NCBI GenBank assembly: GCA_045644085.1
Contig: JAZRGH010000011.1
Location: 2,730-66,729, forward strand
Source: Alistipes sp.
GTDB lineage: Bacteria > Bacteroidota > Bacteroidia > Bacteroidales > Rikenellaceae
Reading direction: 5' to 3'
DNA length: 64,000 bases
The notes beneath the pieces are model-generated. The model was not told the DNA's origin. It did no database searches and saw nothing but the letters and a program-made list of their open reading frames with translations. Both the position numbers and the translations under genes were made by a program. Positions 55,281 to 59,122 of the stretch are shown in pieces; within the stretch, counting starts at the first letter, position 1; each line of letters opens with the position of its first letter.

Positions 55281-55301
55281 AGTACTTAATTTTGCTTGAC
55301 A

Positions 55302-55350
55302 CAAAATTAAGAATTAAAAATTAAAAATTGAGAATTAAGAATTAAAAGTT
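55302..55350 (-). promoter_or_regulatory. radA -7 box (TAATTTTG, 55302-55309) overlapping a 7-bp tandem array
   Basis: + strand reads aattaag|aattaaa|aattaaa|aattgag|aattaag|aattaaa|agtt. Confidence 0.7.
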
Positions 55351-55366
55351 TTTGAAGAGAGGATTT

Positions 55367-55444
55367 TAGCGGCAGTTAGGGGTAATTAGAGTTGCGCCAC
55401 TCTAACTATCGCTAACTACCCCTAACCACCACTAATAACCACTA
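55367..55444. repeat. Inverted array of degenerate 10-mers
   Basis: tagcggcagt|taggggtaat|tagagt ... act|ctaactatcg|ctaactaccc|ctaaccacca|ctaataacca|cta. Confidence 0.75.
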
Positions 55445-55458
55445 TTTATTAGCGCAAC

Positions 55459-55490
55459 TTTGCAACTCTCGAAAATAATTTCTAAATTTG
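55459..55490 (+). promoter_or_regulatory. Full Bacteroidota consensus promoter (-33 TTTG, -7 TAAATTTG)
   Basis: TTTG at 55459-55462, 20-nt spacer, TAAATTTG at 55483-55490. Confidence 0.8.
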
Positions 55491-55493
55491 TGG

Positions 55494-55734
55494 TGCAGTC
55501 CTCGGATTGCAGACATATAGAAAGTGTTTTTCGTATTGTTCTTGGTAGAGAATCTGACAGTTTTCAATGAGAAGGAACGGCGAATAGCACTCATTCCTTG
55601 TATAGTTATGACGCTATGCCAGAATTGGCATACCCATACTATTCAAGTGTGGGGCTTTATATCGTTTATCTTCTCAAAGGTTTTGTCAGAACCTTCTATC
55701 AAATAGACGAAAATCAACCTCACACTTTCTTTTT
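55494..55734 (+). ncRNA. Putative structured RNA or 5' leader: small hairpin plus a ~210-nt imperfect rod
   Basis: A nested series of complementary blocks seen by eye (detailed in findings), starting just after a consensus promoter and ending in a T run. Confidence 0.65.
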
Positions 55735-55779
55735 ATAATAACCGCACATTCGGGGGTTGGTGGGCAAAATGAGGAAACT

Positions 55780-56871
55780 ATGGATTTCAAGGAGTCTATT
55801 AAAGATTTATCAGAACGCATAATTGCTTATAAAGACCTATTGCATAATGAAGAGCAGACAAAAGACTCTTTGATTAAGCCGTTTGTTCGCTTAATGGGAT
55901 ATGATAGTTCTAATCCATTGGAGGTTAAGGCTGAAATGCATTGTGATGTAGGGATAAAGAAAGGTGAGAAAGTCGATTACTGCATATTAAATAATGGTGA
56001 GCCTATTATTTTGATAGAATGCAAGCGTTATGGCGAAAATCTATCTACTCACTACAATCAGCTATTTCGATATTTTAGTGTATCCGAAGCAAAGTTTGCG
56101 ATTTTAACCAATGGTATTACATATCAATTTTTTACAGACCTTGTAAAACCAAATATAATGGATGAAAAGCCATTTATAGAGATTGATCTCACAAATATCG
56201 AAGATTGGCAAATAGATGAAATTCAGAAATTTCACAAGTCTGTCTTTGATGCTGAGCGTATTCGGAATGCTGCAAGAAAACGCAAAGATACGGAAGACTT
56301 GGCTACTAAATTAAAGAACACAATCAAAAACGAGCTCCACTCTCCTTCTGAAGATTTAGTGAATTTCTTTATAGAAAAAGTTTGTGGAAAAGAACTTTCG
56401 CAAGAACTCTTTGTATATTTTTCAGAAGTAGTGAAACGACACTTTGTTGATTTAATTGCGGACAAATCAAATGTTGCTACAACTCACCCTCACCACGATA
56501 TTGGCACCAACAGACATAGGACTACAACTTCTTCGGGAAAAGACAAGTCACAATATGCTATTAATGGTAAAGGTTGTTATGGCAAATGTCCTCTTCCAAA
56601 GGAAGTTGTTAAAGAGTATCTAAAACAGTATAATATCTTATCCATAGAGCAATTGCAGGATATTTTCTTAGATGATTTGCAGGGTAGCAGGTTGGGAGTT
56701 ATACGAGCAAAAATAGAAGACAAGAATGTCAAAAGATATTATAAAATAGAAGACCATAAATTGGGAATTATTTATGTATGCAAAGATTGGTATCCTTGGA
56801 CTATTACCAATTTTTTATCCCACGTCAATACAAATATCGAAGGTATAACCATCACTAAAATAGAGAAATAA
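55780..56871 (+). CDS. Stand-alone HsdR_N-type (type I restriction R N-terminal-like) PD-(D/E)xK nuclease with an additional C-terminal domain
   Basis: NEEQTK..LI.PF...MGYD..NP.EV, KKGEKVDY, ILIECK, QLFRYF, AILTNG and MDEKPF motifs. No helicase motifs. Confidence 0.8.
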   Translation: MDFKESIKDLSERIIAYKDLLHNEEQTKDSLIKPFVRLMGYDSSNPLEVKAEMHCDVGIKKGEKVDYCILNNGEPIILIECKRYGENLSTHYNQLFRYFSVSEAKFAILTNGITYQFFTDLVKPNIMDEKPFIEIDLTNIEDWQIDEIQKFHKSVFDAERIRNAARKRKDTEDLATKLKNTIKNELHSPSEDLVNFFIEKVCGKELSQELFVYFSEVVKRHFVDLIADKSNVATTHPHHDIGTNRHRTTTSSGKDKSQYAINGKGCYGKCPLPKEVVKEYLKQYNILSIEQLQDIFLDDLQGSRLGVIRAKIEDKNVKRYYKIEDHKLGIIYVCKDWYPWTITNFLSHVNTNIEGITITKIEK

Positions 56872-57609
56872 ATGAGAACAAATCTTACGGGCGGTATAAC
56901 CTCTTTTGTAGTATTTTTTGTTATGCTTGCTCTAATTGTAGAAAATATTGCTGTTATATTGGGATTTATAGGAATTGTTGCAGCGATAGCTATAGTGGTT
57001 ATTGTTGCGAAAAATAGTGCAGAAAAAGAGCAATCAAGACAACAAGAAGCCTACGAGGAGTATGCACAAAAGAGGGAACAGCAAAAGATTAAATCAACCC
57101 AGTCGAAAATAGATAATGCTCTAGAACTCTTAACCGAGAAGCACGGAGCACCTGACAGAGTTATACGCCCCAATGACCTAACGGATTATGGTTACTTTGC
57201 ACTATTTGTTAATCATAAAGTTATCTATATCAATGATATCGCATTTCCATTTGCCGACATTGCATCATATAAATTAGTAGATAATTGCCAAATTACCAAA
57301 GGAAACATAAGTGGAAGTGTTACGACATCAGCCGACACAAAAGATGTTGTAATCAGCAGTTTGGCAGGCGATTTTTGGGGAGGTAAGACGGGTGCTATTA
57401 TAGGTGGTGCTACTGCACAAAAACATTCATCGGTAAACCTTGTGCAAAATAATGATACTCTCATTCACGACTACACTTTGTTAATCAATCTGAAAGGTAT
57501 TAATCGTGAAGGTATTGAGATGCATATCGGTGATGATTGGCGATTAGCCGCAGAATTGGAACACCTATTCGACCAAATAATCAAAGAGAGCAATTCCTCG
57601 ATGCCATAG
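56872..57609 (+). CDS. Hypothetical membrane-anchored protein (N-terminal TM segments, coiled coil, beta-rich domain with a GAIIGG motif)
   Basis: ATG immediately follows the previous TAA. Residues ~8-46 are hydrophobic, and AGDFWGGKTGAIIGGATA is glycine-zipper-like. Confidence 0.75.
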   Translation: MRTNLTGGITSFVVFFVMLALIVENIAVILGFIGIVAAIAIVVIVAKNSAEKEQSRQQEAYEEYAQKREQQKIKSTQSKIDNALELLTEKHGAPDRVIRPNDLTDYGYFALFVNHKVIYINDIAFPFADIASYKLVDNCQITKGNISGSVTTSADTKDVVISSLAGDFWGGKTGAIIGGATAQKHSSVNLVQNNDTLIHDYTLLINLKGINREGIEMHIGDDWRLAAELEHLFDQIIKESNSSMP

Positions 57610-57630
57610 GTATCGAAAACGATACCCGGC

Positions 57631-57717
57631 ATAGGGAATATAGGGAATATAGGGAATTTAATGAAAATAGGGAGAATAGCTTTTCGCTAAACTCCCTAAA
57701 TTCTTTAATCTCACTAT
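57631..57717. repeat. Inverted array of 9-mers
   Basis: ATAGGGAAT x3, ttaatgaaa, atagggaga, tagc-ttttc-gcta, then aactcccta|aattcttta|atctcacta. Confidence 0.8.
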
Positions 57718-57730
57718 AAAGCCAATGGCT

Positions 57731-57769
57731 AAAAGAAAAGAGCCGAGCAGAAAATATAATCTGCTCGGC
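57731..57769 (-). terminator. Terminator of the rseP operon
   Basis: GCCGAGCAGA / TCTGCTCGGC with an A-rich run on the + strand. Confidence 0.75.
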
Positions 57770-57799
57770 ACCTTTAATTCTCAATTCCCAATTTGCAAA

Positions 57800-59122
57800 C
57801 TATTTGAATAGTTTGTAAATATCATTTCCGTTGGCGAAGATGACGAGTGCCAAAATCAACGCCATACCGATATACTGTGCGACCTCCAAGACCTTATCGC
57901 TCACTTTACGGCCCGTAATCATCTCCCAGAAGGTGAATATCATGTGTCCGCCATCGAGTCCGGGGATAGGAATGATATTCATAACCGCCAAGATAATCGA
58001 CAAAAACGCTGTCATCGACCAGAACTGGTGCCAATCCCACTCCGAAGGGAAGATGTTGCCGATAGCGATAAAGCCACCAACATGCTTATACAAGCCGGTG
58101 TCAGGCTTCACGATAAGCACCAACTGATCCCAATAATTTTTGATTGTCTTGGCTGTCAAACGAGCACCCGCAGGGATAGCCTGGAAGAAGTTATACTCCT
58201 CGGTACGCACCTTAAAGAAATTTTGGTTTATAACACCCAACTTACCCTCAGCATCTACGGGAACCGACAAAGACAAAGTATCAGCACCTCGTAACACCTG
58301 CAACTCGGCATTCGAGCCGGCCAACTTCGAGAGGCGCTCGGCATAGTGGCTGAAATATGGAAGACTCTCACCTCCGATACCGATAATACGATCACCCTTC
58401 TCCAAACCTGCAGCCAAAGCGGTAGGCGAAGCTATGCTATCCACCACAAATGGTACCAAAGGTGCGTACAGACGCTCCTTCTCGAAAGTGTTATCCTTAC
58501 GCATCAGATTGAGTATCTCGTTGTTGAGCAAGAACTTATGCTCCACACCGCCACGAACAACCTCCACCTCGCAATTCTCCTTTGCAAGAAGAATCTTGCC
58601 GAGTATAGAGTTGATATTGTCAATCTTCTCGCCACCGATAGTTACGATGCGGTCGCCATCTTGGAAGCCCAACTGCTCAGCACTCTGCGAGAACTCGTAG
58701 CCATAAATCATATCCTCATTCGAGATATACTGCGAGCCATACGAGAACGAGATACCGCAATAGATGAAGAATGCCAAGATTACATTCATCGTAACGCCTG
58801 CTGCAAGCACGAGGAAGCGTTGCCAAGCGGGTTTTGCACGATACTCCCAAGGTTGCGGAGCCGAAGCCAACTGCTCCTTATCCATACTCTCATCGACCAT
58901 ACCCGCAATTTTGCAGTAGCCACCGAGAGGCAACCAACCCAAACCATACTCCGTGTCGCCCCACTTCTTCTTCCAGAGCGAGAAGCCTGCATCGAAGAAG
59001 ATGTAGAACTTCTCGACACGAATTTTGAAGATGCGTGCCACAATGAAGTGTCCGAACTCATGAATAGCCACCAACAGCGTGAGGCTCATAAAAAACTGTA
59101 AAACTTTTACTAAAATATCCAT
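57800..59122 (-). CDS. rseP: RIP metalloprotease RseP
   Basis: HEFGH, PLGGYCKIAGM, PDZ domains and NIIPIPGLDGG motifs. Confidence 0.95.
   Translation of the reverse strand: MDILVKVLQFFMSLTLLVAIHEFGHFIVARIFKIRVEKFYIFFDAGFSLWKKKWGDTEYGLGWLPLGGYCKIAGMVDESMDKEQLASAPQPWEYRAKPAWQRFLVLAAGVTMNVILAFFIYCGISFSYGSQYISNEDMIYGYEFSQSAEQLGFQDGDRIVTIGGEKIDNINSILGKILLAKENCEVEVVRGGVEHKFLLNNEILNLMRKDNTFEKERLYAPLVPFVVDSIASPTALAAGLEKGDRIIGIGGESLPYFSHYAERLSKLAGSNAELQVLRGADTLSLSVPVDAEGKLGVINQNFFKVRTEEYNFFQAIPAGARLTAKTIKNYWDQLVLIVKPDTGLYKHVGGFIAIGNIFPSEWDWHQFWSMTAFLSIILAVMNIIPIPGLDGGHMIFTFWEMITGRKVSDKVLEVAQYIGMALILALVIFANGNDIYKLFK

Follow-up and report, generated by a model that had tools for sequence, protein, structure and literature searches.

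Directly upstream of a nuclease gene in an Alistipes genome lies a segment of about 210 nt that, once transcribed, can fold into a long, bulged rod, and the locus raises the question of whether this RNA serves the nuclease behind it or belongs to something more general. The DNA that we analyzed (hereafter, the window) is a stretch of 64,000 nt from contig JAZRGH010000011.1 of Alistipes sp. (assembly GCA_045644085.1), in which an earlier note had described a promoter, a small hairpin and a series of nested complementary blocks ahead of the nuclease gene.

The window locus and a widespread leader RNA

Every block listed in the earlier note was present at the coordinates claimed for it. The two promoter boxes, separated by a 20-nt spacer, fit the consensus of a Bacteroidota-type promoter. 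They are followed by a 5′-terminal hairpin of variable length (P1), a conserved GACATA linker directly 3′ of P1, and nested blocks that run from 55519-27/55722-30 inward to the apical pair at 55615-32, after which come a T run (55730-34) and the ATG at 55780 (Table 1). The layout of promoter, leader and ATG was constant among the copies described below, with a median of 49 nt from the U-tract region to the ATG, and a TAnnTTTG (-7) box stood 5′ of 135 of the 140 leader copies.

Table 1. Features of the window locus, in window coordinates
Feature	Position	Strand	Basis
Promoter: -33 box TTTG (55459-62), -7 box TAAATTTG (55483-90)	55459..55490	+	sequence
P1, 5′-terminal small hairpin, length variable	55494..55511	+	-7.7 kcal/mol; covarying pairs
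Rod conformation (predicted read-through state)	55519..55730	+	-72.7 kcal/mol; covariation
H5, 5′ arm self-folded (alternative state)	55523..55591	+	-20.3 kcal/mol
M, central hairpin common to both states	55597..55647	+	-16.6 kcal/mol; alignments
H3, 3′ arm self-folded, terminator-like (predicted stop state)	55645..55727	+	-26.9 kcal/mol
Tail pairing, 55714-21 with 55753-60	55714..55760	+	complementarity and permuted-duplex test
U-tract immediately 3′ of H3 base	55726..55734	+	T counts across copies
HSDR_N-type (PD-(D/E)XK-like) endonuclease, 363 aa, first payload gene	55780..56871	+	Pfam, PHROG
Second payload gene, 245 aa, hydrophobic N-terminus	56872..57609	+	ORF
18-bp palindrome, payload 3′ end	57609..57626	.	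all 8 complete alleles of locus

The region 55480-55790 folded at -96 kcal/mol, compared with -69.9 ± 5 kcal/mol for 100 shuffled sequences, none of which folded as well (z = -5.21). In an alignment of 61 homologues, collected by BLAST with no motif filter, RNAalifold found two-sided changes in 26 of 48 consensus pairs. The rod helices drawn in the earlier note were 91.1% paired in these homologues, with two-sided changes in 20 of the 34 pairs tested, and they carried 283 two-sided cells as opposed to 93 ± 7 after shuffling, a strong covariation signal, with the proviso that the copies are related, which can inflate this and other shuffle tests, and that a shuffle count should not be read as a probability. 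Ranked by mutual information among 141 copies, the top eight pairs were all rod pairs. We also observed 349 G-U cells in the rod versus 37 mirror A-C cells, and found the sense strand to be the better folder in 62 of 66 copies; together, these point to selection on this RNA strand, in agreement with the earlier view that the structure reflects selection on RNA and not a recent inverted duplication of DNA. The hypervariable helices were nearly pure Watson-Crick (576 Watson-Crick versus 6 G-U), the largest inner loops of the rod measured about 5 nt per side, and its A/U-rich base, which lies 3′ of an 8-nt bulge, pairs into the U-tract. The rod is a real structured RNA under selection.

It is also one copy of a widespread, multi-copy 5′ leader RNA of the Bacteroidota. 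The window genome held four more near-full copies at 71-76% identity by BLAST, and 11 leader copies in all by profile, and 27 of 29 loci from other genomes carried the leader. A three-motif pattern returned at least 120 rows among GTDB contigs, most of which had Alistipes, Tidjanibacter or Rikenellaceae in the title, while a sequence-only model matched 49 of 149 genomes across the order and 8 of 149 across the phylum, five of them outside the order; per-genome scoring covered 13 candidates, so these genome counts are lower bounds. The distant copies kept the same boxes and layout. A raw count of 31 of 36 genus genomes was set aside, since some of its matches fall on an AT-rich repeat that lies beyond the element. 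Two leaders stood in direct tandem about 30 nt apart at one locus (L260, G108:C706:8988-9383), and two in the same orientation about 1.1 kb apart at another (L266, G118:C66).

Among viral sequences, the Alistipes-type pattern found 2 loci in IMG/VR, and 33 profile matches were present among 120 loci from a looser pattern (L351, L390, L411 and 30 more). One viral-contig leader in IMG/VR stood before an HSDR_N-type gene. In annotated phages, the short type had no match and the long type a single weak partial match, and plasmids contained no match to the leader.

Rfam, scanned with its 6S models for the window and 30 homologue loci, contained no family for the leader, and the earlier note had recognized none; the two weak miRNA matches in the window, which look like chance, both fell on a different hairpin (55358-55442). 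Sub-threshold matches to the Rfam DUF805b hairpin lay near two leader loci (L202:1442-1476 and L263:2709-2743), one of them directly past the leader tail. A full-text literature search returned no description of the leader family, unnamed supplement entries being possible. A term search of the accessible text of two 2026 language-model preprints and of PMC7366714 found nothing on the family, and six leader motifs were absent from the supplementary files of PMC8040213 that the search covered.

As for RNA, eight of nine runs were compared, all of them as Logan contigs and in small shares. A 226-nt gut metatranscriptome contig spanned 55518-55741, which speaks to neither the ends, the strand nor the level of a transcript, and a 225-nt contig, from a run only guessed to be RNA, spanned 55504-55730; in metatranscriptome contigs of this kind, DNA in the libraries is possible and breaks at conserved ends are expected, and we did not count either contig as evidence of transcription.

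Two folds, a tail pairing and a predicted switch

Each arm of the rod also folds on itself, the 5′ arm as H5 and the 3′ arm as H3, with M in the center. H3 and the rod exclude one another, and the RNA has two mutually exclusive conserved folds: the long rod, or H5, M and H3 with the U-tract. In 61 copies the alternative fold was 91.6% paired, versus 37-50% for slid controls, and 14 of its 41 pairs showed two-sided changes, a result matched by 0 of 500 shuffles; covariation within H5 and H3 was modest (35 cells). The strands used in both folds were near-invariant, and the hypervariable strands of the rod formed the loops of H5 and H3. The apical loop of H5 (CUGACA) and its inner loops hold these variable, covarying strands, and the variable loops of H5 and H3 are complementary to one another.

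In the fold computation, H5 was the fold of the growing chain up to 55590-55686, and its helices 1-4 were 79-98% paired in the 61 copies. Just 95 of 135 copies (the 140 minus five without an anchor motif) had a 5′ half with z < -2, making H5 the weaker element, while H3 reached that level in 134 of 135. The base helix of H3 is G/C-rich, was 99% paired in the 61 copies, and closes before the U-tract in 33 of 34 distant copies. M varies in length among copies and is predicted to be the nucleus of a zipper. The rod was more stable than the three hairpins in all 135 copies, by a mean of -14 kcal/mol, and in all 25 distant copies compared. The structure given in the earlier note was borne out as far as the rod goes and incomplete beyond it, as it missed both the alternative fold and the tail pairing described below.

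The U-tract contained 6-7 T per 8 nt in 136 of 140 copies. Counts of T after the base of H3, compared with those left after the base of the rod, were 6.24 versus 4.76 in 25 distant copies and 6.54 versus 5.96 in 136 close copies, 11 of which had more T after the rod base than after H3. These counts favor H3 as the terminator and the rod as the read-through state, weakly so in the close set, and with about six T left after the rod base in Alistipes-type copies, the rod may also terminate there. A simple terminator scan passed over H3, because its rule does not allow so long a loop.

Eight bases on the 3′ side of the leader (55714-21), which are unpaired in the rod and lie partly in the H3 base, are complementary to a tail segment beyond the U-tract, at 8 of 8 predicted pairs in the window. 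Across 140 copies, a set that includes pattern-selected loci, the duplex of each bulge with its own tail scored -9.45, compared with -7.35 ± 0.15 for permuted partners (0 of 2000). The distant copies gave -7.03 versus -4.90 ± 0.30 (0 of 5000; 37 of 41 hits were scorable), about ten of these 37 pairing poorly. Because the tail covaries with the rod bulge, the RNA extends past the U-tract, and the element is a leader, not a free RNA that ends at the U-run; as far as sequence comparison goes, the tail pairing shows selection on the read-through RNA. Together with the rod base, the tail would form an H-type pseudoknot about 20 nt 5′ of the ATG.

From this, we consider it probable that the leader is a cis-acting, zipper-type transcription attenuator for any accessory gene placed behind it, in which the rod is the read-through state and the three hairpins are the stop state. 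H5 and M would fold first in the growing chain. The emerging 3′ arm would then zip up from M, so that H5 opens and H3 loses its 5′ strand; this is read-through, the thermodynamic default. If H5 were held shut, H3 would form and RNA polymerase would stop at the U-tract; a protein, an antisense RNA or the pace of the polymerase may serve as the deciding signal. Once the polymerase had read through, the base of the rod would absorb part of the U-tract and the tail would pair with the bulge thus set free, which would lock the ON fold just ahead of the start codon. A leader-peptide attenuator was rejected because the family has no conserved upstream ORF: the ORF that begins at an invariant GTG ranged from 1 to 102 aa, with frames distributed 39/44/53, in 136 copies, and encoded no conserved leader peptide. 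Nor did we find a conserved antisense promoter (-7 box) inside the leader.

The leader could instead act after transcription, the rod always being made and the second fold being an intermediate, with the effect exerted through processing or stability (RNase III might cut the long stem, for example, or the 5′ end might be protected) or through control of translation by the tail pseudoknot. We regard this as unlikely. It would account for the minimum-energy fold being the rod in all 135 copies, for variable helices that are nearly pure Watson-Crick, as a double-strand-specific enzyme might prefer, and for a tail pairing so near the ATG, but it leaves unexplained why H3 and the U-tract are kept phylum-wide and why strands shared by the two folds are nearly invariant.

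The polarity of the switch could also be the reverse of the one we favor, the rod and the remaining U-run acting as a long-stem terminator, so that foreign genes stay low by default and an RNA of about 240 nt is released. We judge this improbable, and expression by leak-through or antitermination, which it would entail, improbable as well. Long stems are reported to act as terminators (PMC10325885), and both the roughly six T that close copies retain after the rod base and the AT-rich, foreign-looking payloads (35% versus 46.5% GC) would suit such a design; it fits poorly with the mere 4.8 T left in distant copies, with a rod base that is A/U-rich and follows an 8-nt bulge, and with a tail whose partner segment is unpaired in no fold but the rod.

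Downstream genes and exchange at the radA-rseP locus

The nuclease of the window matched Pfam HSDR_N (1e-14) and HSDR_N_2 (4e-12) as well as phrog_4225, an endonuclease (3.5e-81), and had no solved relative. It had been described as a stand-alone gene, which does not hold, as the second ORF abuts it with no gap; the 245-aa product of this ORF had no Pfam or PHROG match and fell into no family. Behind 126 leader copies, the first ORFs formed 59 unrelated clusters, and that of the nuclease accounted for 3 of the 126, the window included, with other genes in the remaining 123. The 126 were mostly predicted surface proteins, a crude rule classing 87 of them as lipoproteins or secreted. Pfam assigned a family to 17 of the 58 cluster representatives, including outer-membrane barrels, BACON, MORN, DUF805, TerB, a PD-(D/E)XK nuclease and a C5 methylase. 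The downstream genes revealed no common pathway, and neither a trigger nor a dedicated regulator turned up.

The largest cargo cluster (47 of 126) consisted of long lipoproteins, many with a coiled-coil-like N-terminus (L002-L005, L160, G000 C21 and others), and its one scanned representative had no Pfam match. Three short-type leaders of the window genome (L006, L007 and L008; G000 C58, C52 and C46) preceded paralogous proteins of 110-124 aa with no Pfam family, which are candidates for a dedicated partner or regulator.

The unit in the window is flanked by genes that, from our own reading of their proteins, we take to be radA and rseP; Pfam placed RadA-type domains in the former. In 29 relatives examined at radA, rseP was directly adjacent in 15, other genes without the element were present in 6, and 8 carried an insertion. 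Two of these (G001 and G327) had the rod and nuclease of the window, G020 had a 95%-identical rod before unrelated genes, and G323 had a different rod before the genes of G020. In G272 and G317 the fold and the motifs indicated a short, far-diverged rod, which the profile had missed in both, and G340 and G277 had no leader at the locus. Relatives with and without the rod shared the same promoter, and in G340 an intact nuclease of 361 aa (81% identical) began about 25 nt after the same -7 box. In G327 only (L240), an ATG inside the central hairpin was in frame into the nuclease.

The palindrome at the payload end occurred in four copies in the window genome, three of them closing leader-headed payloads; it is REP-like and restricted to this lineage. 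As a general part of the payload end it was rejected, being found downstream at only 2 of 93 loci and upstream at 3. At the payload ends of L245, L244 and L243, relatives carried arrays of 2-6 palindromes, set about 45-50 nt from one another by spacers that are themselves related. The insertion is flanked by filler repeats of low complexity and imperfect palindromy (55300-55445 and 57630-57800), which differ among close relatives.

Similar mixing was seen across 169 copies, the pairs among which are not independent: 66 of the 75 pairs of rods more than 88% alike preceded unrelated gene starts, and 8 of the 14 pairs with the same gene start had rods less than 80% alike. Rods and genes are thereby shown, as judged from their sequences, to be freely exchanged among loci. 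Such pairings, along with the four leader states at a single site that is empty in 15 of 29 relatives, would also be expected of a module that works mainly as DNA, either a portable promoter and homology platform or a small non-autonomous mobile element, which takes up and trades accessory genes and to which RNA structure is secondary. We find this improbable: the G-U excess (349 versus 37 A-C), the sense-strand preference (62 of 66) and the tail pairing all speak for RNA, neither an integrase nor a transposase was noticed next to the copies viewed, and shuffling fits an attenuator as a side effect.

That the RNA serves the HSDR_N nuclease as its partner, antitoxin or dedicated off-switch, as the earlier note had offered, is highly implausible, for although the leader and this nuclease family occur together in four close genomes (the window, G001, G327 and cluster member L103) and the leader recurs with 2-3 of 20 more distant homologues (2 by profile, 1 by eye), the other 17 of the 20 lack it (four of the 20 had less than 1 kb of upstream DNA), G340 keeps an intact nuclease without it, and 123 of 126 leaders precede other genes. 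The leaderless nuclease of G340 and the leaders before other genes mean that nuclease and RNA need not have each other, and the nuclease is an interchangeable passenger of the leader. Of the functions first suggested, a cis-regulatory attenuator or leader is thus the most likely, whereas its existing to keep this particular nuclease off did not survive.

More tentatively, the attenuators may together form a phylum-wide module for expression and exchange, in which one switch family with recombination-hub ends answers a single trans signal and gates a shifting set of surface, defense and foreign genes; this is possible, and we would not call it likely. The signal might come from a protein, from stress or a phage, or from loop-matched RNAs of sister copies. 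If this were true, genes and switch variants would change places behind promoters already in position. Gut communities are dominated by Bacteroidota, whose control of newly acquired surface and defense genes is, to our knowledge, poorly known; an uncatalogued switch with about ten copies per Alistipes-type genome, present in many families of the phylum, would give them a common control point.

Comparison with known systems

Dispersed structured mRNA repeats such as ERIC/IRU, Correia and bcr1 are, like the leader, multi-copy, folded into long hairpins and able to affect neighboring genes. The leader differs from them in being fixed both in position and in orientation behind a promoter (135 of 140 copies), in a divergence of 60-75% with compensation, and in its two-state design. 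The antisense-controlled leaders of phages P1/P7 (C4) and P4 (CI), of plasmid CopA/CopT and of the pT181 type also have hairpins with complementary loops, and strand exchange decides termination or translation; here, by contrast, both pairing partners lie in cis within one leader that has no conserved antisense promoter. An antisense system of the C4/CI kind was rejected, there being no Rfam C4 match and no icd/ant or rep cargo in 58 representatives. 6S RNA, including its Bacteroidales form, is a single-copy RNA with a large central bubble, and resembles the leader as a bulged rod of about 200 nt with its own promoter and a U-run. It too was rejected, with no match to the 6S or Bacteroidales-1 covariance models in the window and 30 homologue loci; the leader is present in 11 copies, has no large central bubble, and continues into a tail and a gene.

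FopS of Bacteroides shares the multicopy habit, with 12-15 paralogous non-coding RNAs per Bacteroidales genome according to the portions of PMC11697453 consulted. As described there, each of these RNAs consists of a single-stranded seed and one terminator, and they act in trans. Rfam contains them and gave no match to the leader, and FopS was rejected as an identity for it.

By analogy, the closest system is cATT from plasmid pLS20 of Bacillus subtilis, for which three-segment zipper attenuation was shown experimentally, with the rod as the default antiterminator (PMC13401043, in the portions consulted). Both leaders combine an upstream hairpin with a long stem in the center and, downstream of it, a terminator (predicted here) with a U-tract, and the upstream hairpin is complementary to the terminator, such that zipping produces one long rod (PMC13401043). 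A term search of the accessible text of that paper returned no instance of Bacteroid-, Gram-negative, pseudoknot or kissing. The likeness is one of architecture, and the leader lies outside the cATT family: cATT, as far as the consulted portions describe it, precedes conAn1 and conjugation operons on Gram-positive plasmids and has a weak upstream hairpin (-6.4 kcal/mol), whereas here about ten chromosomal copies per genome precede unrelated cargo in 59 clusters, and H5 and H3 (-20 and -27 kcal/mol) are multi-stem hairpins of 70-85 nt, with a predicted 3′ tail pseudoknot in addition. We conclude that the leader family is real, widespread and uncatalogued, and that it is predicted to work like a zipper-type attenuator without the context of that family. 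If it is an attenuator, it would extend zipper-type attenuation from Gram-positive conjugation operons to chromosomal accessory genes, with a 3′ pseudoknot added.
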